From Octopus sinensis (lineage: Eukaryota), in NCBI RefSeq assembly GCF_006345805.1, contig NW_021836486.1, positions 1 to 24,075 on the forward strand: a stretch of 24,075 nt of DNA, in the 5' to 3' direction. Shown here one piece after another: positions 1-24,075 of this stretch. The notes beneath the pieces were generated by a model. The model was not told where the DNA came from. It saw only the letters and a program-made list of their open reading frames with translations, and searched no databases. Each line of letters starts with the position of its first letter. The first letter of the stretch is position 1. The translations under genes and the position numbers were made by a program.

Positions 1-930
1 AGTAGTCTTGATCTTGAAGTAGTATTGTCGATACGGACCCTTCCGCGTCGGCCAGTTAAGAAATTTTTCAACCACAGTTTGATGTTCGGATGTAAGTTCG
101 AATCAAATATCTTCCGCGTTAGGAGTTTTCCCCTCGGGACAGAATCAAAAGCCTTTTGTATATCAATAGTACTAAGGCCGTCCGTAGGTGTGTTCCCATG
201 TTAAAGCCCTCAGTGATAAACTGGGAGACAGAACACAAGTGGGTCGTTGTGGAACGGTCTGGTCTAAAACCGTGCTGGAATTCTGGCAGTTGTAGGACAG
301 GAGAGATTCGCATTAATACGAGCTTTTCCAGTACTTTCGATAAGATACAAGTTATTGAGATTGGGCGGTATGAAGAGGGGGCATCCTTTGGTTTCCCAGG
401 CTTTAGGATTGGCGTAATTAGGGAGTTTTTCCATATATTAGGTATCGTACGTAAGTTGATGGAGTCGTTATAATTCTTGATAGTACGGTCCGTGCCCGGG
501 GTCCCATTGTTTGAAGTGAATAGCACAAATCCCGTCGGGGCCACAAGAACGGGTGGGACGTAGGGATTTATAGCCTTGTCAACATCATCTGTGTGAAGAA
601 GGTGGAATACGGTTCTGGTCGTGGTCCGTGCGTTCAGTATGTGGAGTGCGAGAGAAGTTTTATGGCTGATCGATACATAATACTTCATAATCTTGTTTGC
701 AAGTTTGCGAGCGGGTTCCGAGGAATGTGGGCAACAGCCTCAGATTCTCTGTCCTCCTCGCGATAAGGCAATTGATCCTTCTTAGCGTTTTCCAAAAGGT
801 GGCGCAGGAATTTCTGTGACATAAACGTCCAACAAGACGACTCCACTTGATCCGTGATTAGTGCGGATCAGTTCAGAAATTTTGATATTCAAAGGACGTA
901 TGATGCGGATCCTCCATTATTATCGGTTCT
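1..930 (-). mobile_element. LINE (Jockey/I-like) ORF2 fragment: pre-RT linker and N-terminal half of the reverse transcriptase, frameshifted, runs off the window
   Basis: ORF 119..688 contains IPNIWKNSLITPILKPGKPKDAPSSYRPISITCILSKVLEK and QHGFRPDRSTTTHL. After a frameshift it continues DIQKAFDSV. The upstream frame gives KWSRLVGRLCHRNSCATFWKTLRRI, a typical LINE linker. The 5' boundary is approximate. Confidence 0.88.
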
Positions 931-1179
931 TAATGGATATAATGTTAGGAACTTGTAATTCAGAGTTATTAAATTATCGATGTTTAGCTTTTCTTTGCTA
1001 TTTATGTTATAGCTTGTCTTGTCTTCTTAAGGTTGTGCGAATGGAGACAGATGACCTTATTACGATTGTATAGATTGAAATGCAAAATCTCCAGTGACCC
1101 CACCAGAAGGGAAGGATGTCTTTATACTTTATGTTCCTCACATTGAACATCTTGTTTTTAACACTTCTTTAACTCTTGG

Positions 1180-1345
1180 TTGATAGGATCGAAGATCATG
1201 TCGAAAAAAACGATCGAAGAGACAAGCTGGCTTTTTCAGCAAATCTCGGTCGCTGTGCTCACCGGAAACTGTTATTCCATACGCAGCGCTGCGTCAAAGA
1301 GCTGACCCCTAGGCTTTTGACAGACAGCTTTTAGTCGTAGTTAGT
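1180..1345 (+). mobile_element. 3' tail of a CRE-like (REL-endonuclease) non-LTR retrotransposon
   Basis: Translates LIGSKIMSKKTIEETSWLFQQISVAVLTGNCYSIRSAASKS*(TGA 1303-1305), matching the CRE-type C-terminal motif F/LxQRISxAxxRGN. A T-rich tail follows. Confidence 0.7.
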
Positions 1346-1586
1346 TATTATTTACTTTCTTATTTTTTTTATATTATTGATTAAGAAAAAGTTTCACAGG
1401 TAAAGGGAATGCTTATTAGCGGATTGTCAGAACATTACCCCTGACTATACCTAGGAAGACTCACTCGGAAGATATCTGTTTTGCCAGTAACCCTTTTTAA
1501 AGGTTATCCGATTTTTTCCGAGTAGGCTACGAGTAAAAGATCCCTGTATTAAAGACGTTTTGACTGTCAGGAACAACACTCTACAG

Positions 1587-1630
1587 CAGGGGTATCAAAC
1601 TCATTTCGCTTCGAAGGCCGCATTTATAAT
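1587..1630 (+). mobile_element. Orphan terminus of a hAT (Charlie/SPIN-type) element
   Basis: CAGGGGTATCAAACTCA...GGCCGCAT resembles Charlie/SPIN TIR plus subterminal motif. It is preceded by CTCTACAG, a typical nTCTAnAn 8-bp target. No partner end was found. Confidence 0.5.
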
Positions 1631-1734
1631 ATGATTCACGAGCCTAGGGTGTTACCGAGCCGGACAGGTTACACTTGTGTGCTTGGAAAAAATTGATTTG
1701 GACAATAAAATTTATAAATTTATAAATTGACAAT

Positions 1735-1905
1735 TTTCGGGCTAAGACGCTTGCTCAACTCAAGAAACTTGGCCGCTTGTGCACCCACCGCTCCAGAGAT
1801 CCGAGGGAATTTATATTCCTTATTCAGAGGATCTCGCTGGCTGTTTTACACGGGAATTGTCTTTCAATCCTGCGAGCCAGTTCATAGTAGCTAGTTTTTT
1901 TTGTT
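1735..1905 (+). mobile_element. 3' tail of a second CRE-like retrotransposon
   Basis: Translates AKTLAQLKKLGRLCTHRSRDPREFIFLIQRISLAVLHGNCLSILRASS**(TAG TAG 1885-1890), followed by a T-run. Confidence 0.75.
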
Positions 1906-2104
1906 GATTTCTTATATAGTTTAGTATGTTAAAAAATTGACAAATATAGTAGGTGGTATGAATGAATTAAGTTTATTGTAAATTAACAGAGAAAGAGAAA
2001 GTTAACAGGAATTAAGGGCGGTGATAGGACGAGACTGATGCCAAGGCACTGAACTCTTATGAGCTTGCGTCCAATTCATCTGTCGTGAGCCAGAGTAGGT
2101 TCAT

Positions 2105-4575
2105 TAATTTTTGACGAGTGCAGAGAGTTACCGGTCGATAAACAGGTCGGTCACTTGGGATCTCCTTCGGAAAGACCGGATAGATTTCTCAATGACCTGT
2201 CGTATCTCCAGGGATCTGTCTCCACCCAGCTTGGGACGGGGCCTCGTGGGTCAAGCGTATAAGCTAGCTTCAGCGCGTAGCGTCGATTTTCTCGCATTTC
2301 CCGTAAATTTTCTCGAGATCTTCGAGTATTACCATGCTTCCATTCCGTACAGCAAGCTGGGTAGGATGGTTGCATGGAACACAAAGGAATGTCTTAGGAT
2401 CCAGATGCATGCTTCTTAAGAGGCGGAGAGCCGCAATGGCTTTCGCTCTCTTTTTCTTTACATGCAGACGGTAGCCCGAGTTAGCGTCGATCGTAAGCCC
2501 CAGGTAGCGTATGCAGCTGGGGCGCCCAATTTCGGCTAGGGGCCCAGAGCTCTGATCTGATGACTTTTTCGAGTTGATTGTAGGAAAGCGGATTTATCCA
2601 TTGCTAACGAGAGCTGTTTGCTGGCGCACACCACTCCTTTATTACCTCAATGTAGGTGAAAAGCCTCTTTTCTGAGGCCATCACATCTTTGAGGTGTCAA
2701 GGATAAGGACGTCATCAGCATAGAGAAGTAGATTTGTCCGAGGGTCCCGGGGCAAAGGGAAACTGCTCATAACCAAATTGAAAAGAAGTGGACTGAGGCA
2801 GGACCTCTGCGGAACCCCTCTGGGCCTCGAAAGCTTTTGAAATGTCCAGACATACAAGAGATAGAGTTTTTTTTTAAATTCCATTGCTCTCGAAATCATG
2901 GACTGTACCGTTATGAAACAGTCACTGCAGCTACGCCCAGAACGAAAATCCCATTGCTGCGTTAGCAGCACTCTCTTTCTTCGGAGTGGAAGTCAAGGCG
3001 CTTGGCCATGATTTTTTCCATCAGCCTTGAGATAGTTGTGATTAGGCTTATGGGACGATAGCTGCTAGCGAGGTTCACAGGCTTCGCAGGCTTTTTGATC
3101 ATCCGGACCTCTGAGATTTTCCATTTCCCGGCACATGGCCCCACTTGAGACTTGCCGTAAACAGATCCGCAAGGAACACATGTAGGTCTTCAGAGGCTTC
3201 CTTAACAGCCGCATCGGTATTTTGTCGTGGCCTGGTGCGTAGCCTTTGACGAACGGATGGCCCAGTCACCTCTGCAGTGGTGATCGGGTGATGTTCCGAC
3301 GACAGTGCGCGCAGCAGTGGCTCCGACTCCCTGCCTGCGCGTGTTGTATTGGATTGGCCTCCTGGATAATGGCCAGGTTTCTGCGAAATGTTCGGGATTT
3401 CCTGTGGCGAGGCGGGCATATCAAATTGGTTGCACAGCCTCGGGGGTGAGGATTTTCCTTCGAGGTTAGCCACTTTGCGGAAACAGTCCCAGAAATTTGG
3501 GTTTCTGTAGTCTAAGTTTTGACAAGCCTTCTGCCATTTCCTGCATTTCCAGCTTTGTCAGGACTTGAACTTCATAGCCAATTTTCGAGATCATGTTTTT
3601 AAGTCTACCCTGTCAGTGGGGTCAACACAGCGTTTGAGTTTGTTTCTCAGCCGCTTTCTCTCGTTGAGGAGAAGTTTCACCCTCGTGCTTAGAGTAGATC
3701 TTCGTAGGCGGTCAGCACATGGCACTGTTCCGTACGATTTTAGATAATGGCGCATGAAATTTGTTAGCTCATCGCTTGCATAGTCGATGTCGCTGGCAGT
3801 GTTGTAGTATGTAAGGTGAGTGTTCACAAGTAGGAATGCACTCATAGAGCTTCTATAGTGTGGCCAGTTGATTCTTGAAAGACTGTAGCCTGTGGATACG
3901 TGGTCTTGTTTAATAGAGCTAGAGTGAATTTTGATCTCCATAGGAAGGTGATCACTTCCGATATCGTCAAGCACTGTAGGCTTTTCCATAATGGTAGCGA
4001 TCGAGTGAGAACAGAATGCACAGGCATAGGTTGTCCTCGCCGTAGGGCGATTGGTGGTTCGGCACTTCAGATGTCCTGACGAAAACACCAAGTTTGTCAG
4101 TGATCGTCTTCAGTGTTTCGACCATCCTGGTTGCTTAATCGACATCCAAACGCCGTATGCTTCGAGTTTAGGTCTCCGATAAGAAGGCAGTGAGCGCTAT
4201 TTGAGAAGAAATCGTTAATCAGACTGGTGCAGGGAGGAAGATATTTGCAGTATTTCCACCGATTTTTAGCCAGAAAGATTCTGTTTTCACCTCAAGAGAT
4301 AGGAATTCACACAGTGTCCCCTCGATGATAGTGAGGTTACGACTTTGAGATTTTCGCTGTAAGAAGATGCTCGAACCAGTCCCAGGCGTAAAGCAGCTAC
4401 CACCATTTAAGATCCACTGACCGGTAGCCTGGGAGCTGGTAAGAGTCATCTTCCTTGAGCTTCGACTCGTTGACGACAATAATGTCTGGATGGCCGCTGT
4501 TCACCATCTCAACGAAGTCGTGATGCCATCTCTTGATAGAACGGGCATTCACAGCGATTATTTGATCGTGGCTAT
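2105..4575 (-). pseudogene. LINE ORF2 (apurinic endonuclease + reverse transcriptase), frameshifted, with an internal deletion
   Basis: APE motifs: IIAVNARSI..PDIIVVNESKL, LIGDLNSKH, DDIGSDHLPM. RT motifs: KPAKPVNLASSYRPISLITTISRLMEK, QWDFRSGRSC, DISKAF joined directly to GVPQRSCLSPLLFN (deletion near 2826), LLYADD, RYLGLTID. Confidence 0.88.
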
Positions 4576-4723: not shown

Positions 4724-6079
4724 GGCGATATCGTGTTTTAGCGTCTTAAAATCACAAGGGATCAATTCTGATTAGAAATCGCAAATAAATTAATATTATT
4801 ATATTATTTTTTAAAAATTATTATAATTATTTATATGTACAATACTGTGGCAACCCTAAATTAAAATTTTTTTAAAACTACATTTTTACACAGCAACTTA
4901 GTAAAACATGAAAACAGTGAAAAAACTCGAATTATTAAGACAAAGGATACTGAGAATTAATAGTTATTAACATTTTAATAAATGCATTCCCGCCTCCACA
5001 GGGATACGTATCATTTCTCCACCGCCATTCAAATTCCGCCAGATAAGAATTAAAAAGAACACGGGATGTTCCATTCATCCTTTTAGCTTTTTCTTGGCGT
5101 GAGACCACAATGACTCGATTCCCTGCGTATGTGTGGAGCGATTGTTCTGGTCAACAAAATTGCGGCTGTGGTTGACTCTTAAATGATCGGCATATCCTAA
5201 CAATTCGATTCTATTGTAGGCTGGCCAATAATCCTACAGATAATCGATCCGGTCTGTACATGAGTTTGGATTATTGGAATCAGCCTGTCTCGACTCCGAT
5301 CAGGAACTTCGACCAGAAAAATATTCCTAGGGTTGCCCCTCTCTTTTCCACCAACAACCCAATGCCCTTCGTGCCAGGTACCTCTTGCGTATTTTCGATG
5401 AAAATATTTTGTTTCATCCACTTCTACGACAATTGGCAACATAGTTTCTGGTTTTCCATTCCACCGAGAGAACAAGGATGGTCCTCGACCCACTTTACAC
5501 ATACATCACGTAAAAAGTTGCCCCAATCAATTGATGTTTTTTTAAAGTCTGATCGAGATTCTTTGCTGCAGATAATCGTTTCTGAATTGAGTGCCCAAAA
5601 ATAGATATAGTCCAAAATTTTCTTCAATTCAAGATGACTATGTGAGAAAAAGCTGCCATCTCGAATCGATTTTGAGAAATTGCATGTTTTACATTTCCAC
5701 TTTAATTTGTCGAGTCGGGATTTGTCTGAAAGAAGACGGCAATCCGTGCTGCAGTTTTCGCATTTCATCGAATTTTTGATTAGCTGATATTGAGCCAACC
5801 AATTGCCGTATCTGCGTGGTCACTGTTATTTCCACAAAATCTCGGTGTTCAATTCAAATAGTAACAAATCATATGTTGGTTGAGTATTATTAACAATAAT
5901 AGTCGATGCAGACGGCCTTCCGCGAGACATCATTCAAAAATACTGTTAAAGCGTTGCAGATAATAATTATTTTGATAATTATAATAATTTTTAAAAAATA
6001 ATATAATAATATTATTTATTTGCGATTTCTAATCAGAATTGGTCCCTATGATTTTAAGACGCTAAAACACGATATCGCC
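4724..6079 (-). mobile_element. Merlin (IS1016/IS1595-ISXO2-like) DNA transposon, complete
   Basis: About 105-bp TIRs starting GGCGATATCGTGTTTTAGCGTCTTAAAATCA and ending TGATTTTAAGACGCTAAAACACGATATCGCC. Perfect 8-bp TSD GAGAGCCG at 4716-4723 and 6080-6087. Confidence 0.95.
4935..5933 (-). pseudogene. Merlin/ISXO2-like DDE transposase with N-terminal zinc ribbon, several 1-bp frameshifts
   Basis: Motifs CENC...WKCKTC, SIRDGSFF, VEVDETKYFHRKYARG..WVVGGKERG, VPDRSRDRLIPII, D(Y)WPAY, VNHS..FVD, HTQGIESLW and YLAEFEWR. Ends YPLS-TAA. Confidence 0.9.
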
Positions 6080-6467: not shown

Positions 6468-7618
6468 CAGTATGGTCCAAAAATTATTACAGCCCTTGTT
6501 TTTTTTTTGAAAAAATCTTATATCTGTTAGAATAATACATCTATTTAATTATTTTTTTTTGAATTATACTATTTTAGTTTTTAATGGATTTTTCATTTGT
6601 AGAAAATTAAAATGAATTTAATTGTACATATATTTAAAAAAATTAATGAATTTCAAATGGTCCATAAATAGTACACCTTAGCAAATTCAACATCCGTTGT
6701 GCTTTAAAATTACCTAATAAAGTTTTATTTAATATAAAAAATATTTTTATTATTAGTTTATGTTTTTTTATTATTTTAAAGTAATTATTTAATTAAATAA
6801 TTATCTCTTTATCAAAATAATTACATGAACATTCGTGAAGTTGATCTCTTTCAGATATTAAAAATCGTATTCTTTCCTTACACGAGGACAACTATGGACA
6901 CAAAAAAATTGCCAAGAAACTTAAGATTAGCAAGAACACCGTTGCTAGGATTGTACAAAAATACCGAAAAAACGGAATAAACGGCATTTTAATGGAGAAA
7001 GAGGGAGACCGAAGAAGTTATCTATCAGATCTACAATAAAAAGGACACTACATGAATGCAATTTATATGGCCAAGTACCTCGAAGGAAACCATTATTGTC
7101 AAAAGGCAAAAAAAAACCGTTTACAATTTGCAAAAAAATAGTAAAACAAAATATGGATTTTTGGAATAGAATTCTGTGGTCAGATGAGACCAAAATCAAT
7201 TTGTTCGGATCAGATGGAATTCAGCATGTGTGGCGCAAAAATGCCGATGCACTAGTAGCTACAATGAAACATGGCGGCGGAAATATAAAGATATGGGGAT
7301 CTATGAGCTCGCAAGGACCTGGTGAACTTTATATCATAAATGGGATCATGAATGCAGACATGTACATTATATACTTGAGGAAAAAATGATTCCCTTTATC
7401 AACGATCATTCAGGAAATCAGATTTTCCAACAAGATAACGATCCGAAGCATACTGCAAAGAAGACTAAAAGTTTTTTGACTGAAAAAAAATCTTGCAAAT
7501 GGACTGGCCGAGCATGTCGCCAGATTTAAATCCAATTGAACACCTATGGTGCTATTTAAAAAGAAAAATTGAAACATTTGACGTCACAAATAAAAAAAAT
7601 CAGAAAATTTAATTATTG
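6468..7618 (+). mobile_element. Tc1-family (IR/DR type) transposon, left end plus transposase, right end lost
   Basis: Left end TA|CAGTATGGTCCAAAAATTATTACA. An inner direct repeat ATGGTCCATAAATAGTACA lies at about 6657-6675. The sequence is truncated where pogo sequence begins. Confidence 0.85.
6825..7612 (+). pseudogene. Tc1 DD34E transposase, frameshifted, internally deleted and 3'-truncated
   Basis: Paired-like HTH (KKIAKKLKISKNTVARIVQKY...GRPKKLS), then RKPLLS, WNRILWSDETKINLFGSDG, TMKHGGGNIKIWG, FQQDNDPKH and [15 protein letters not shown]. The D-to-E spacing is 34 residues if one A-run indel is corrected. Confidence 0.9.
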
Positions 7619-10534: not shown

Positions 10535-11281
10535 CAGTGCACGACAAAAGTAACCGGACAAGCCGAAATTTCCATTATTTTAGCCAATTTTAATGCTTTT
10601 TTAAAAAAATAGCTTCTTATTAATTAAAATATTCATTAAATAATATATTTACTTTTTTAATTTCTTTTTTTTTGAATAATCCATTAAATTTAAAGCACAC
10701 TTATTAAATGTAGGTGACAAAAGTAACCGGACACTTTTCAGTTTTTCGCCAAAATTACATTTTTTTAACCTTTTTAGGGGTACACACATGTCAGATTTTG
10801 TTAAAGGACAAATAATTGCCTTTAAAATCAAGGAATCAAAGTTCTTTCATGGCCCGCCCAATTACCTGATCTCAATCCCATTGAGCACGTCTGGCATATA
10901 TCAAAAGAAAATAGATGAAAAAACCCCAACATGTCACAATGATCTAAAAGAGGAAATTATCCAAATTTGAAGATCAATCCCGATAGAGTTCATACAAAAA
11001 CTAATTTTATCAATGAAGGATAGAAGCTACGCAGTGTATAATGCCAAGGAGGCAATTCTAGATTTAATTTTTGATTATTTTTAACTGTCCGGTTTCTTTG
11101 TCGCACCTCGTATTATTTATGCTTTAAATTTAATGTACAATTGAAAAAAGATTAAATTAAAATGTAAAATTGTTTTTCGTGTAAATTAATGTACAAAGGG
11201 TGATTTATGTGAAAAAAAGTTTTAAAATGACTTAAAATAATGGAAATTTTGGCTTGTCCGGTTACTTTGTGTCGTGCACTG
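10535..11281 (+). mobile_element. Non-autonomous, internally deleted Tc1 element with about 200-bp IR/DR ends
   Basis: Ends TA|CAGTGCACGACAAAAGTAACCGGACAAGCC ... GGCTTGTCCGGTTACTTTGTGTCGTGCACTG|TA. Inner DRs lie at about 10714-10734 and 11087-11107. The remnant ORF fuses N-terminal MSDFVKGQIIAF to [15 protein letters not shown]...DLKEEIIQI..SIP..KLILSMKDR..AV...GG. Confidence 0.92.
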
Positions 11282-15548: not shown

Positions 15549-16861
15549 CAGGCCTGGCCAACCCAAATCGCATCGCGGGCACTTTGTCCAAATGAATCCT
15601 TTCCGCGGGCCGCATATACATGTACATACTAAGGATAGATATCAAACAACACAGATAAGATTTATTTAGTAAAATAGCATTCAGTCCAATTATACGTATC
15701 AATGAGAAATCTGTTTTTCTTTATCTTCACTTAATTTTTTCAAATCAACTTCACAATTACTAGTTGCCCATCTTAATTGGTTTTCTAAGTTTTTATCTGT
15801 TAAAGAAGATCTATATCTACTTTTACTAAACTTTAATTTCGAAAAGAATGATTCACATACATTTTTTATGCTTCTTGACTCCATCTCATCCATTATTAGC
15901 TTTACAACTCCTTTATTTCTTCCAATCATAGCCGGCGCCCCATCTGTTGTCAATCCAGCAAGGTCTCTAATTCGCTCCATTGTCGGATAAACATTTCATA
16001 ACAGCTTGGAAAATATCTTCGCCCTTTGTAGTATCTTTCAAACTGACAAGGTTAAGCATTCTTGTTTCACTTGAAAAGATTCGGTAACTCCACGAATATA
16101 TACTACAAGTTGAGACGTTGTCTGATATATCCGTGCATTCGTCAAAGGCCAAAGAATAACTTTTGAAATATTTTATTTGATCACGCAAAGTCACCACAAT
16201 TTCATTTGAAATGTCATTAACCCTGCGACATATGGTTGACGTGACAAGCTAATGTTTGAAAACTTTTTAGTTTTATCTGGCAAAATGTCTTTCACGACAG
16301 CATCCAAACACTCTTTACGAATTCTCCATCCGAAATGATTTCATTCTCTTTGAAATTATCATTGCAACAGAGTAGCTTGCTTTAACAGTATCAGAAGAAG
16401 AGTGTATCGATGAATTTAATAGTCTTTGCGGATTTCTCAATTCAGATTTAAGCGAATCCAGTTTCCTTGTTTTCAATTCCTTACTAAATTCGCGTATTCG
16501 GAATGCTTGTTTTCATATGTCTTCTTACATTGTACTCTTTCACCACCGATACTTTCTCCTTGCAAATTAAACATGTTGGCTTGGAATTATGCATTATAAA
16601 AAAGTAATCTCTTCCCAATGATTGCTGAATTGCCTGTTTTCTTCAAAAATTTTCCTTTTCTTCATATTGATAACAGCTACAAAAATAGATAAACTTTAAA
16701 ATTTATTAAACTTATAAAATTTATCTTTATTTATTAAACTTAAGAAAAATTTATCTTGAATGTATTTATAGGTTAACTACATACAAAATTTCTCTCGGGG
16801 CCGCACCAAACTCCATCGCGGGCCGCATGCGGCCCGGCGGGCCTTGGGTTGGCCAGCCCTG
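15549..16861 (-). mobile_element. hAT transposon (SPIN/Charlie, GTF2IRD2/EPM2AIP1-like), internally deleted
   Basis: TIRs CAGGCCTGGCCAACCCAA / TTGGGTTGGCCAGCCCTG (one mismatch). Perfect 8-bp TSD GACTAATG at 15541-15548 and 16862-16869. Subterminal CGCGGGCCGCA repeats are present. Confidence 0.95.
15699..16665 (-). pseudogene. hAT transposase with in-frame internal deletion and frameshifts
   Basis: Motifs MKKRKIFEENRQFSNHWEE, PTCLICKEKVSVVKEYNVRRH, YSLAFDECTDISD, SLKDTTKGEDIF and TTDGAPAMIGRNKG. These are fused directly to CESFFSKLKFSKSRYRSSLTD...QISH*. Confidence 0.9.
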
Positions 16862-18046: not shown

Positions 18047-19911
18047 AATAGGCCTTCAACAATTAAGGTTGTTTTAGAAATTGGTTGTGATTATCTTTGT
18101 TTTTGCAGTTAAGATGCACATATTCATATTATATCAATAATTCTATAATGTCAAAACCAATAATAAATTAATAGTTAATCAGAAACTAAGCAGATCTCAC
18201 TCCAGCTCGCTGATATCCACTCTCCTTCTCTTGGAAGAAGAGTCTACTTCCAGCTGCCTCTTACTCCCCCTACCACATCTGATTCAATCATTGCATCTTC
18301 TTTAGCATTCATTGGGTCGTCTTCATTTTTGCATGCCATCTCCACATACCGGTTGGAAGCAGAAGCGTATTCTTCACCAGATACCTTCATTCCGTGCTTG
18401 TGTTCGATCATCATACTCTCGAGCGTTCTTTCAGTACAACGGATTGGATGTATGTCCTCGTTCCTGCTTCATAGATAGTTTCTTCATATAATTTTTGAAG
18501 CATTTCGAGACAACTCCATCCCATGTCTAACCACACCACAGGAATTATTTTTACTTGACAGCTATACAGAAGCGAAAGCTCACTTGCAATAGGTCATACT
18601 TGTGACACTTTTCAACCTCCACTTGCTTGAGGCGATCCTGTGAAGTAATACCCACTTCAATTAGATTTATTTTTTCTGACTTTGTCGTGGACAAGATATC
18701 TGGCTTTTATATTCTACTTTTGTTTCGGTGAGGATTGTAGAATCAACCCGATTTCAACTTTTCCCGTCGACAGTGTTGACTGAACAGAATGTCCCTTCAA
18801 TCGTCTTGCTTTTTTGAGTCCATACATTCGGCACAAGTAAGGTGAATACACTTCACAACTTCGTTGTGTCTCCGGAGATAATCACTGTTGAGCATTTTAC
18901 CACACTGAGTAGCCATGTGGTCAACAGTTTTCTTGCTTTTCTTACAATGATTGCATAATGAGTCAGCGGATGCAAAGAACAAGTTTCGATCTTGCAAAAG
19001 ACAATACAATGCTTCGCTTCGTGGCCCATTATTTCCATTAGATAGCCATTCTGAGGATGCAGGTAATCAACATTAGGTTCATCCACACATTTGAAAAGCA
19101 CAGAATGTAGTGCTTTAGAACTAATTTTCTTTTGTAATATTGTATCTGACTGGACTTTAGAGACTCTATAGTAATACTCTTCTTATCAATAATTGCATAT
19201 TTGGAGGATAGAAATCCTGCGATCATAGCCAATGCCATTTATTCATTTTAATTACACGCAGAATCCCCGCCCTCCGTAAGCATATAGTTGACATATTTTC
19301 CAGACTCGTAAGGAACTGAAGAGAGCTTAGTTCACTTTTGAAAGTAACTGATGAAAGCCCTCTTCCAAGAGCCTTCCGGTTTAAATACAGTCTCTCTTTA
19401 TTTGCAGGTTTGAGATGTAATCTGAGCGACGTAAGCAATTGCCGTATTTGTCTGTCAATATCATCAAATTCAGAAGGTTCAATATTGATTAGCCCAATAT
19501 AATAATTATATAGTGACAATGCATATTCATTTATAGCACGAAACAGATTCACAGAGTTGAGTTTTGTTTTCGATAGCATAGTTATCCTCTTCTTAACATT
19601 CTCAAAGATAGAGTCCATAACTCTATTCTTAAGAACATTGCTTCCACCATCTTCAAGTACACCCAAATACCGATATCCATTGATTCCATCAATAGTCTTA
19701 CAACATGATAATGATTCCAAATTAGACGCTGATTTTTCTGAATCATCTCCAAACCAACAATTTTAAAAAATCCGTTAACAGCTTCCATCATTTTGAGTAA
19801 AGTGTCTTGTTTGAGAGCAAATATTTTTAATCGTCAATAATAGCAAATGATTAGTAGAATATGTGTGACAGTCCAATAAAATACACGCCGAATAATCTAC
19901 ACTTGTCACAA

Positions 19912-21351
19912 ATGGCTGAAAAATTAGAAATCTAAAAATTAGTATGAAAAAAATCAATAATTGATTATTTATTTTAGTAGAATCACATTATTTTTTATTT
20001 AAAAAGCGTGAAACATGCGTGTAGTGAGATATTTAAGGAAACACTGGACAAAATCAAAGAAATGAAAGACTCCAACTTTGATACATCGTCAATCGAGCGG
20101 CATGAGCGATACAGGCTCACAAATTTGGGAAAGAATTTCCATTTTGAAAATGGAAAAACATATTTTCGAAAAAATGGGCTTAAATTGCGTTTTTTCTGTG
20201 AAGATGAAATCGAATTAAAGCTTAAGTGCGTTGAGGTCCAACTTAATAAATAAAATTTAGGCGGAACATAACTATAACCACTTTGGGAGAGACCGGCTTT
20301 TTTCGAAATTAAGAAATCTCTATTGGGATTGAATAGAGAAGAAATCTCTAAGGTGATTTCGAATTGTGCTTTCTGTCAGGTAATAACTCCTTTTAGTAAA
20401 TATTCTTAGTCGAAAAAATTATTGTCTACGAAGCCTCCGATTACGCCAATCATTTCAAGGAGATGTAGGGACAGATACATTGCGGATTTAATTGACCTCA
20501 GAAGATATTCGGTTGAATGATGGCTTTAGCTGGGTATGAATTTAATGTTAATATAGATTTTGGTAATTGTGGATTCTTTTTCCAAATATGTAATGCTTGA
20601 ACTGTCGGTGACCAAATCTTCTGAAAAATCGCAGATTTATTCCAAAATTTTTTTATTATGTCGGGCCTCCGCTTATTCTACACACTGATAATGGAAGGGA
20701 ATTTTGCAATTCGCAAATGGATGCTCTATGTACGAAATATGGTATAAAACATGTACGTGGGAGGCCTCGTGCTCCTTGGGTACAAGGGCAAGTCGAAAGG
20801 TTAATGATTTAAAATCGATTTGTAGATTTAATCAAAGCATAAAACGCTGGATATCGTCGGCAAGTTCTTCTCAAAATTGTTTTGGACGATATCGCGAATG
20901 CATAAAGGACATCGTGTATGATTACAATAACAGCATTCATTCTTCGACAAAAAAATCCCTTTTTATATATTCATGGGTTGAAAATCCTGGAAGGATTGAT
21001 GAAGGGGGAATGGAGCAACTTTTAGCCTATGATTCAACTGGATTATCAGAGGCACGAGAAAGTGCATTAGAAAACTTAATTATTGCTGGCGAAAAAATGA
21101 TTGAAAAAAGAAAATGGAGATACGACGAAGAAAATATCAATGTCGGACGACTGTGCTTTTAAGGTCTTAAGCGTCAAATTATTTTTAGACAGGACAACGA
21201 TGCCAATGTTCGGCAGTATCCGCTGTACGATGGACTTGATGTTAATAAGTATATTGTTGTCGAGCGAAGAAATGATCTCTATGTTATCGAAAAGGAGGAC
21301 GGTGAGCGGTTACACGGAATTCATATTTCTCGATTAGCTAAAATTGATTAA
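19912..21351 (+). CDS. HHCC + DD35E integrase-like transposase, multi-exon, with a few 1-bp indels; start uncertain
   Basis: Spliced product contains EHNYNHFGRDR...CAFCQ, KPPITPII, RYIADLID, WILVIVDSFSKY, GPPLILHTDNGREFCN, GRPRAPWVQGQVERFNQSIK, YNNSIHSSTKKS and TVLLRQDND, ending ISRLAKID*. Confidence 0.85.
20236..20260 (+). other. 25-nt intron
   Basis: GTCCAACTTAATAAATAAAATTTAG joins CVE|AEHNYNH. Confidence 0.8.
20380..20409 (+). other. 30-nt intron
   Basis: GTAATAACTCCTTTTAGTAAATATTCTTAG ends in an in-frame TAG. Removal joins CAFCQ|SKKLLSTKPP. Confidence 0.8.
20534..20556 (+). other. 23-nt intron
   Basis: GTATGAATTTAATGTTAATATAG joins DGFSW|ILVIVDSFSKY. Confidence 0.85.
20800..20825 (+). 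other. 26-nt intron
   Basis: GTTAATGATTTAAAATCGATTTTGTAG region. Removal restores the conserved QGQVER|FNQ. Confidence 0.85.
21164..21188 (+). other. 25-nt intron
   Basis: GTCTTAAGCGTCAAATTATTTTTAG joins TVLLR|QDNDAN. Confidence 0.65.
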
Positions 21352-24075
21352 TTTTCATAAATCCATAATAAAAATAATTTTTTATTTAAATTAACGATAA
21401 ATTTTATATGAAAATTTATTAGATAACCTAAAATGGAATAACAATATTCAAACGTATAAGTTAACTGCGTAAATTGAGTGTGGTTGGTTTTTTATATAAA
21501 TTAGTAAAAAAGGTTAATGAATTTTACATTAAAAATCATATTTTAATAATAATTAACATTTTTTTTGTGTAAATTTTTAATTCAGTAAAATTAAAGAATG
21601 TAATTATTCGGCGTGTATTTTATTCGGACTGTGACAGAATATGTTAACATATTGGGATCTTCCTGGTTATTTCAAGTTTTGGAAACACGGAATTAAGGAT
21701 CCTGCTTAGAGGATCTAATACCATAACACAAATAGTAAAGGAGACAATGAGTCTCCCTGTAAAATTCCTCGGTTAACTAACTTCACTGATCCCATTCTTC
21801 TACCTTCCATATGCAGCTTTACTGCCCACTTCTTAACTACGCTCTTCCAAAGTTTACGATCCAAAGCGGGATTCCAGAACAATCCAAAACGTGAAACAAA
21901 AAATCATGATCAACTGAGTCATATGCTTTCTTCACATCGACCCAAGCAGAATAAAGGCCATTCCCGTACTCCTTGTTCAAACATTGGTTAATGAAAGCTT
22001 GCTCCTTGGCGCCTTGACAATACTTCCTCGTTCCAAGTTGTTTGTCTGAAATTAGGCCAAATGCCTCGACAAAATCAGCCAGTTTTACATTAACACATTT
22101 GGTGACAAGTTTATACATGTCGGCATACACGTTATAGGACGTAAGTCCTTCAGGGTCTCACAATCATCTTTTTTAGGAATCAAATATGTTATTCCAGTGT
22201 AAAACCAACTTTCAGGCATGTACTCTCCATTAATTATTCGGGTTATCTCGTGACACAGAATCCATGTAATGACTCCATCTTCTTAATGAAAAAGTTATCT
22301 ATCCCATCACATCCACATGCCTTCCAGTCAGGAAGATAGTTAATAACATTCCAAAACTCTTCCGTAAACTCTGGAAGCATATGTTCAGCACAAGTAGTTC
22401 GTTTTCCAACAACGTCATAAGATTGAGGCCTCTCATTTCTCTCGCTCCAGACTTTTTGCCAAAAAGAGACACATTCTTCATCATCAAATCCATACAGCGT
22501 CACTTCCTCTCTTTCTTTGTTAAGTCTCGATAGAATCTTTTTCGATTTAATTCAAAGCACTGATTATCCTTACGAAATTTCTTCTTCCTTGAATTATGAA
22601 CTTCTATTTTCTTATTGTTAATCCTAATCAGGTCTTGCAATAATATCTGAATCCTCGACAGCTCACCTTTCTTAGTTTTCTTATACCCATAGCGACAGAG
22701 AACATCCATTACCTTTTGCTTTTCAGATGGAGGTAGTGTTTGATTGGAATGGGAATTAACAATTTCCAATTCTGCAGATAATTTTGAAATTTTCTTTTCA
22801 ATATTTTCTACCCATGTGCTCTGTGCTTTGTCTCTCATGGTTAGAGATAAATACGCACATTGAGGCAGCATATAGAATATCAGAAATGCTATTGATATCA
22901 TTAGGATGATTATCTTTCGTAATATAATATATCGCCGAATTCAATCCTGTCAATATATCAGTTTTCAAATATTTATTTTGAATTTTTGGTTGGTTTACGT
23001 GAATCCCTTGGAATCGATTCAATATTCTTAATTTGTATATTCAACTCTTCTAGACACTTTCTAAAAGTGGAAATTTCTGAGCTCTCAAGAAATTGCTTCT
23101 GATGGCAATTGCTTCCATAATTATTATCCACTCTCATTGGTTTAACCATTCCTTTGAGTTGACTGAGACTTGCACTCTTCGAGAATTTTGAATTAAACTT
23201 CTCACGGATAAGGTTCCATCCACCTCTGGTATCCTCCCAATTCTTTGCTTCGTGCATAAACAATCTGAGGCACCCACTCAGCTTCAGAAACACAAATAGC
23301 ATCATCGATAATGGCCGAAAGGGAATGCAAGTTAGTTGGGATAGTAGGATTCCCCAGCAATTGGATTGTCATGATACTAGTCCTTGTGCTGTTATCCCCC
23401 CAGAGACGACACTCTCTGCACTTGTTATGTTATTTTTATCCTTTTTCGCAGGAAGGCCCCTAGGATTCGATTTCCTCATATCATTAGGAACGGACATGCA
23501 CAACACACAAACAACTTTTTTTTTTCATATTATATAAATAAATGACATTTTTTAAAAGTGTAATATAATAATTATTTGATTTTTTCAAATTGTGTTTCTA
23601 GGATAAAAATTAACACATTTTAAACTTTTATAAATTGACCTAAGTCAATTTTGTTGAATAGGAAATGGAACAATTTTCTTTATTTTTGTTTTTTCAAAAA
23701 ACTTAAATAGATGATTATTCTTTAACTCCAGTATCAGGGAATTTGTATAAAGAAAAGTCCACAACAAAGAAGAAAAATTGAAACTAGTAAAGATTGAACT
23801 TTTCCTTGAGAGAACGTTTAATATCGCTCTTTCTATTGGGTATGGTGAAGGTTTGCAATCTACTGTTATTAAATAATTGGAGAGAATTTTTTACGGAAGG
23901 TTGCTAAAAGAACTGACATCTCTATAAGGCTCAACCCAAATAAAATATTTTAAAAGAATGTCAATGTCCACTGAACGAATCACGCCGTTGAATGGACCAA
24001 TATAAAAATGTCATTTTAATCAATTCTATCCATATAAAATATGTTTTATTTTTTTCTAAATATGTCTTGAGTCCC

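Follow-up and report, generated by a model that had tools for sequence, protein, structure and literature searches.

A compact, recently mobile integrase-type transposon with tiny introns, likely of the Ginger2/TDD group, on a small contig of the Octopus sinensis assembly

Among integrase-type DNA transposons, the group that the element reported here most closely resembles is Ginger2/TDD, which, in the available text of its description (PMC2836005), has TGTNR ends, AT-rich targets, and a transposase with an H2C2 zinc finger and a DDE domain but no GPY/F or YPYY motif. The same source gives target site duplications (TSDs) of 4 bp for metazoan Ginger2 and 5 bp for TDD-4/5, terminal inverted repeats (TIRs) of 45-297 bp, and autonomous families of 2.75-6.7 kb (PMC2836005 Table 2); accessible parts of another give the Ginger2 TSD as 4 or 5 bp (PMC10045372), and insect Ginger2 elements are listed with a TIR of 16 bp (PMC3845634 Table 1). 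KRBA2 and SCAND3 are reported to be domesticated derivatives of Ginger2 (PMC3575427), and Ginger has been listed in one microsporidian by its rve domain only (PMC5751038). Here, we describe a transposon at positions 19864-21636 of a 24,075-nt stretch of DNA (contig NW_021836486.1 of the Octopus sinensis assembly GCF_006345805.1), referred to in full as the window. The element is 1,773 bp long, has TGT...ACA ends, and carries a single gene for an HHCC/DD35E transposase, with no reverse transcriptase (RT), gag, or long terminal repeat (LTR) seen, much as the original prediction for this locus had described it. We consider it probable that this is a recently mobile 1.8-kb transposon, likely a member of Ginger2/TDD, in a tiny-intron animal that is likely a dicyemid, and that the window copy was inserted with a rare 7-bp stagger.

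The left TIR occupies 19864..19896 on the forward strand (34 bp in other copies, with the window copy one base short) and the right TIR 21603..21636 on the reverse strand (34 bp). The two differ by a single fixed mismatch at position 4, the left end starting TGTGA and the right end TGTCA, both invariant across copies and both fitting TGTNR. Exact 40-base end patterns occur in the genome at 25 left ends and 23 right ends, with reversed-pattern controls giving 0, and none of these 48 exact matches lies on a chromosome-scale contig. A genome search, in which 40 of 250 candidates were scored, gave at least 83 matches, and half of the loci retrieved (15 of 30) hold near-full-length copies. Copies L002-L006 each sit at a different site and are only 0-3 substitutions apart, and this near identity at separate sites indicates recent spread. 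Internally deleted derivatives of 1.3-1.6 kb are also present (L024, L025, L028, and L029 among the loci retrieved), several of them with TSDs; L024 and L025, though inserted at different sites, have identical breakpoints, suggesting a non-autonomous subfamily mobilized in trans. The proposed 1.77-kb DNA transposon is thus a mobile family with at least 25 left ends, and a domesticated single-copy gene was rejected as an explanation because the element is mobile and multicopy. A remnant of an LTR retrotransposon was likewise rejected, given that no LTR or RT is present and that Gypsy Pol sequences group separately. A search of viral contigs found no relative, and metagenome contigs yielded one related locus, around which no TIR pair was found. 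This relative (L161:609-2135) is ~41% identical, has an insertion within the zinc-finger region, and carries its own GT-AG introns of 28 and 31 nt at different sites.

The window copy is bounded by an exact GAATATG repeat at 19857..19863 and 21637..21643, and it interrupts a young non-LTR retroelement with an RT gene on the reverse strand (18368..23407 at least), other copies of which have open frames of >1,000 codons. In 14 of 14 other retroelement copies examined, the target is present once, and it follows that the 7 bp were truly duplicated in the window copy, as originally claimed. This length is, however, atypical for the family. From 31 loci examined, 7 were dropped for a missing or damaged end and 2 duplicates were merged, and among the resulting 22 sites, with TSD lengths scored up to 10 bp, 14 have a 5-bp TSD (one of them a poly-T run), one has 7 bp, one has 4 bp, and six have none; a 6-bp TSD was found at 0 of 22. 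Of 462 mismatched flank pairs, which served as a control, 10 scored as 5 bp and one as 7 bp. The TSD bases are A or T at 67 of 70 positions, and sampled contig stretches have a GC content of 32-34%. For related families, a TGT-type TIR pair was found at 12 of 50 loci, with a 5-bp TSD at eight of the 12, none at four, and 7 bp at 0. The 7-bp duplication of the window copy is genuine but a one-copy outlier in a family that makes 5-bp TSDs, and a family-wide 7-bp TSD, by which the original prediction had marked out a new lineage, is rejected. The 5-bp TSDs of other copies largely refute the original prediction by its own criterion, and this length had already been published for TDD-4/5 and Ginger2 (PMC2836005 and PMC10045372). 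Off-length TSDs are themselves known, the accessible account of GingerRoot recording 7 bp in 5 of 77 copies (PMC6839031). The preference for 7 bp over a 9-bp TSD with G...C ends was sound, as the exact TGT/ACA termini are constant and the flanking bases vary, which excludes the 9-bp reading. It is unlikely that the repeat is a 5-bp TSD joined by two bases from the donor site or from an assembly error: the inner five bases do match the family length and the contig is error-prone, but both extra bases are identical to the target and contig errors are mostly deletions. This alternative bears solely on the origin of the outlier, for which we favor a real 7-bp stagger.

The transposase gene lies on the forward strand and has a predicted start ATG at 20015. 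Exon 1 (20015..20235) is followed by intron 1 (20236..20260; 25 nt, phase 0), which is found in all six sister loci covering the site, and by exon 2 (20261..20379), which encodes the H2C2 (HHCC) zinc finger, with Pfam Integrase_H2C2 matching the same exon of L002 (E 2.2e-6). Intron 2 (20380..20409; 30 nt, phase 0) has an in-frame stop at its end; of seven sister loci, five share it and two lack it cleanly. Exon 3 (20410..20533) holds the first catalytic Asp (codon 20485-20487), and intron 3 (20534..20556; 23 nt here and 25 nt in most copies, phase 0) is found in all seven sister loci. Exon 4 (20557..20799) encodes the rve core, with the second Asp at 20687-20689 and the Glu at 20795-20797 (rve E 8.8e-16 on L002), and is separated by intron 4 (20800..20825; 26 nt, phase 2; 6 of 7 sister loci) from exon 5 (20826..21163). 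Intron 5 (21164..21188; 25 nt here and 26 nt in most copies, phase 2) is in none of the four sister loci covering its site and is specific to the window family, and exon 6 (21189..21351) extends to the stop codon. The catalytic residues are D140, D201, and E237 with D-35-E spacing, in agreement with the predicted HHCC/DD35E integrase, and no Pfam family for RT or RNase H matched any exon. For the homolog P0146, the best relatives of solved structure are foamy-virus integrase (E 1e-17) and Ty3.

All five introns are GT-AG. They had been proposed at exactly these positions with lengths of 25, 30, 23, 26, and 25 nt; the positions hold, and the lengths in clean copies are 25, 30, 25, 26, and 26 nt, introns 3 and 5 having been shortened by deletions in the window copy. 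Blind spliced alignment guided by P0146 (45% identical) and P0176 (36%) placed the five introns at the exact coordinates in L002 and L003. These alignments began at the ATG (window 20015), reached almost to the stop, and gave 404 aa with a single frameshift. Alignment to two other guides was partial; it found introns 2-4 again and put the donor of intron 1 further upstream, by 6 nt. Five shuffled guides recovered 0 introns. Retention of any single intron produces a frameshift or stop. Across the sister loci (n = 7, 50-64% protein identity), introns 1-4 hold their position and phase, and their sequence and length (~22-33 nt) diverge. A candidate sixth intron (19942..19977, forward strand) was rejected as a coding intron because the alignments of two homologs start at the ATG at 20015 and the candidate lies upstream of that codon. 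The claim that the frame becomes readable once the introns are removed did not hold for the window copy, which retains 13 stops and differs from other copies by 25 gap columns and several frameshifts. The flanking retroelement has ~20 gap bases per 1,470 relative to its best copies, and from this rate we infer long-read error as the source, such that most of the frameshifts would be sequencing errors.

Transposition can be outlined from what is known of Ginger2 and of retroviral integrases. The host spliceosome would remove the five 25-30-nt introns to give a transposase of ~405 aa with the HHCC and DD35E motifs, which would then bind the 34-bp TIRs, bring them together, and release the ends by cutting at the terminal CA. 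The ends would attack AT-rich targets at positions staggered by 5 bp, repair of the gaps would leave the 5-bp TSD, and the window copy would have entered the young retroelement with a rarer 7-bp stagger. PMC2836005 states that the mode of excision of Ginger elements is not known.

Most likely, the transposon is a compact branch of Ginger2/TDD. Every structural Ginger2/TDD feature tested was found, namely TGTNR ends, TIRs, AT-rich targets, H2C2 with DDE, and, by a simple motif scan of the transposase, no GPY/F or YPYY, together with a 5-bp TSD as in TDD-4/5. It differs from the published Ginger2/TDD elements in its size, 1.8 kb as against 2.75 kb and above for autonomous families, in a TIR whose 34 bp fall between the 16 bp of insect Ginger2 (PMC3845634) and the 45-297 bp tabulated elsewhere (PMC2836005), in a 5-bp TSD in an animal, in its five 25-30-nt introns, and in a separate protein sub-lineage; given the 16-bp example, short TIRs, put forward as a mark of the lineage, are not unique to it. 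KRBA2 and SCAND3 share the integrase class, and databases give these names to close relatives, but the element here is mobile and multicopy and has no KRAB or SCAN domain. Ginger1 has TGT termini and transposase genes with 1-4 GT-AG introns, some of them conserved, but is described, in the accessible text, with 4-bp CCGG/CCGT TSDs, YPYY, GPY/F, and OTU/Ulp1 tails, none of which is seen here (PMC2836005). GingerRoot and IS3EU have an integrase-like DDE domain and occasional off-length TSDs (PMC6839031), but as far as their available descriptions go (PMC6839031, PMC10045372) they have mostly TA..TA ends, a 6-bp TSD, and no HHCC, in contrast to the TGT..ACA ends, HHCC, and lack of 6-bp TSDs here. 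IS481EU, likewise with an integrase-like DDE domain, is given TSDs near 4, 15, or 25 bp and no HHCC in the sections available (PMC10045372), whereas HHCC is present here and 5 bp is dominant within the 10-bp range scored. The Polinton/Maverick integrase is the sister group of Ginger2 in a published tree, but these are large multi-gene elements with a 6-bp TSD and no H2C2 (the latter from the available text of PMC2836005), unlike a 1.8-kb single-gene element with H2C2, and Gypsy LTR retrotransposons differ by their LTRs, gag, and RT. No description of the compact sub-lineage was found in the openly searchable literature, Repbase and subscription journals being outside the search.

Trees were quick IQ-TREE runs with Shimodaira-Hasegawa-like approximate likelihood ratio test (SH-aLRT) supports on 58 and 28 of 148 rows, none of them a labelled TDD-4/5 or Ginger2 protein. 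In the 58-row tree, the Gypsy Pol integrases are split off by a 99% branch, with the transposase on the other side together with KRBA2-type proteins. One group (88%) comprises the insect and sponge proteins bearing what we take to be the KRBA2-type motif, and another (93%) the intron-rich families. The 28-row tree supports a wider sub-lineage at 97%, marked by a motif of its own close to the catalytic Glu. Thus, the phylogeny that had been called for separates the transposase from Gypsy and leaves its order relative to the KRBA2-type group without support, and of the proposed undescribed KRBA2-like lineage there stands a distinct compact sub-lineage related to Ginger2/KRBA2, without the 7-bp mark and with the KRBA2-type group separate. 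Named close relatives carry the label of O. sinensis or of microsporidia (Dictyocoela, Nosema granulosis, Enteropsectra, Cucumispora, and Nematocida), and in these protein comparisons the compact sub-lineage appears interleaved with microsporidian proteins, apart from the KRBA2-type and Gypsy integrases. Monophyly of ten sequences from the octopus-assembly genome, a group picked after earlier trees, was rejected on the 28-row set by the approximately unbiased test (p-AU 2e-68, LG+G4), because intronless and one- or two-intron families adjoin microsporidian proteins.

A separate superfamily between Ginger2 and the Polinton integrases, using the same cut-and-paste route, is a rather unlikely alternative to this placement. 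It would suit the supported clade with its own motif, which lies outside the KRBA2-type group, the presence of giant-virus and Preplasmiviricota integrases among the look-alikes in Atlas, and the 5-bp TSD in an animal. Against it, the tested structural features are all those of Ginger2/TDD, the H2C2 finger is kept and is reported absent from Polinton integrases in the accessible part of PMC2836005, and Ginger2 is itself described as divergent, with ~30% minimum core identity. We therefore retain membership in Ginger2/TDD.

The copies sit on small contigs of the octopus assembly, and P0011, a protein labelled O. sinensis by its source, is identical to one of them (C1794). Actin genes on small contigs (three analyzed, one on a copy-bearing contig) are intron-dense with GT-AG introns of 24-29 nt. 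Innexins are markers of animals. Many of their genes are found on several of the copy-bearing contigs, and of four analyzed with a chromosomal guide, three contained a single 26-30-nt intron. A small-subunit (SSU) rRNA gene on C1618 is 1,667 nt long with 45% GC, as against ~2,600 nt for chromosomal copies (64% GC in one measured). Published values for dicyemid introns are a median of 27 bp (PMC6543705) and a mean of 26.2 nt (n = 16; PMC2222250), and introns this small occur among 51 animal genomes only in myxobolids and D. japonicum (PMC13644364). O. sinensis is a host from which D. japonicum has been collected, and the D. japonicum genome has 36.7% GC and 49% repeats (PMC6736024). From the intron sizes, the SSU gene, and this literature, we infer that the host of the contigs is likely a dicyemid co-assembled with the octopus. 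Another tiny-intron symbiont (a myxozoan, protist, or microsporidian) or the octopus itself is a distinctly improbable host: no dicyemid marker was matched by name and the nearest named transposase relatives are microsporidian, but the innexins, the intron-dense actins, the absence of exact ends from chromosome-scale contigs, and the narrow distribution of such introns among animals all speak for the dicyemid. Tiny introns are a trait of this host and not special to the transposon. The suggestion that intron density reflects adaptation of the element to a tiny-intron spliceosome is undercut by host genes with introns of the same size and by related transposase families on the same contigs with none (L101, L107, and L108), one or two (L105 and L110), or three to five (L145-L160) tiny introns at family-specific sites.

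A number of observations weigh against the reading that we prefer, a recently mobile Ginger2/TDD transposon in a dicyemid. No TSD was found at 6 of 22 sites, and published metazoan Ginger2 TSDs are 4 bp in the text available (PMC2836005) and not 5 bp as here. Splicing of the five introns is predicted from sequence, and an open spliced frame was found in 0 of 15 full-length copies, the best two being one homopolymer base short. Branch order among the sub-lineage, the KRBA2-type group, and a zinc-finger-less group lacks support, in trees with no labelled TDD/Ginger2 row. Evidence for the dicyemid is indirect: innexin intron calls shifted under a second guide protein, the contig with the odd SSU gene carries no transposon copy, and no dicyemid name appeared among the best 120 of 134 matches in an actin search (top 83%). 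A previously undescribed lineage that has 7-bp TSDs as its mark and is adapted to a spliceosome for tiny introns is scarcely credible, for although the window duplication is real, the introns are apparently real and needed, and the protein sub-lineage is distinct, the rarity of 7 bp in the family and its absence from TIR-bounded sister copies refute it on TSD length, occasional longer TSDs are known from GingerRoot, and host genes share the intron size.

What sets the element apart within the known superfamily to which it likely belongs is the small size, the 5-bp TSD in an animal, the separate protein branch, and the host-sized introns; in place of a 7-bp-TSD lineage there is a young, multicopy family of Ginger2 type whose TSDs, in an animal, measure 5 bp. 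Related families with 0 to 5 tiny introns in one genome offer a small system in which to study how introns are gained and lost and how transposons are exchanged between parasites. The interleaving with microsporidian proteins suggests transfer of transposons between microsporidia and the host animal, and, with identities between this genome's transposases and microsporidian proteins of only ~37-64%, suggests no more than that. We raise tentatively, as a possibility that we do not favor, that a compact 5-bp-TSD branch passed repeatedly between microsporidia and dicyemids and that the dicyemid families represent graded de novo gain of 22-33-nt introns; if true, this would be a datable natural experiment in which a transposon settles into a tiny-intron animal.

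Within the public octopus assembly there appears to be a second, long-read genome, that of a parasite with tiny introns, the genes of which are octopus-named and mis-spliced. Small contigs such as C8460, C9082, C12459-C12471, C12597-C12605, C1794, and C1618 apparently belong to such a whole animal genome, and the public predictions P0001 and P0022 carry octopus names with intron sequence retained by the annotation. The putative parasite contigs also show a large innexin expansion, with dozens of matches.

Elsewhere in the 24-kb contig other repeats were seen, and no host gene was identified anywhere in it. A Merlin/ISXO2-like DNA transposon at 4724-6079 has a 31-bp TIR, an 8-bp TSD, and a weak DDE_Tnp_IS1595 match, and a TA-flanked element of ~750 bp with long imperfect inverted ends (~10536-11281) is probably non-autonomous and of the Tc1/mariner type. 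Decayed repeats at 119-4109, 6949-7389, and 15699-16248 comprise a second non-LTR RT element, a Tc1-type transposase (HTH_Tnp_Tc3_2), and, by eye only, a hAT-like fragment.

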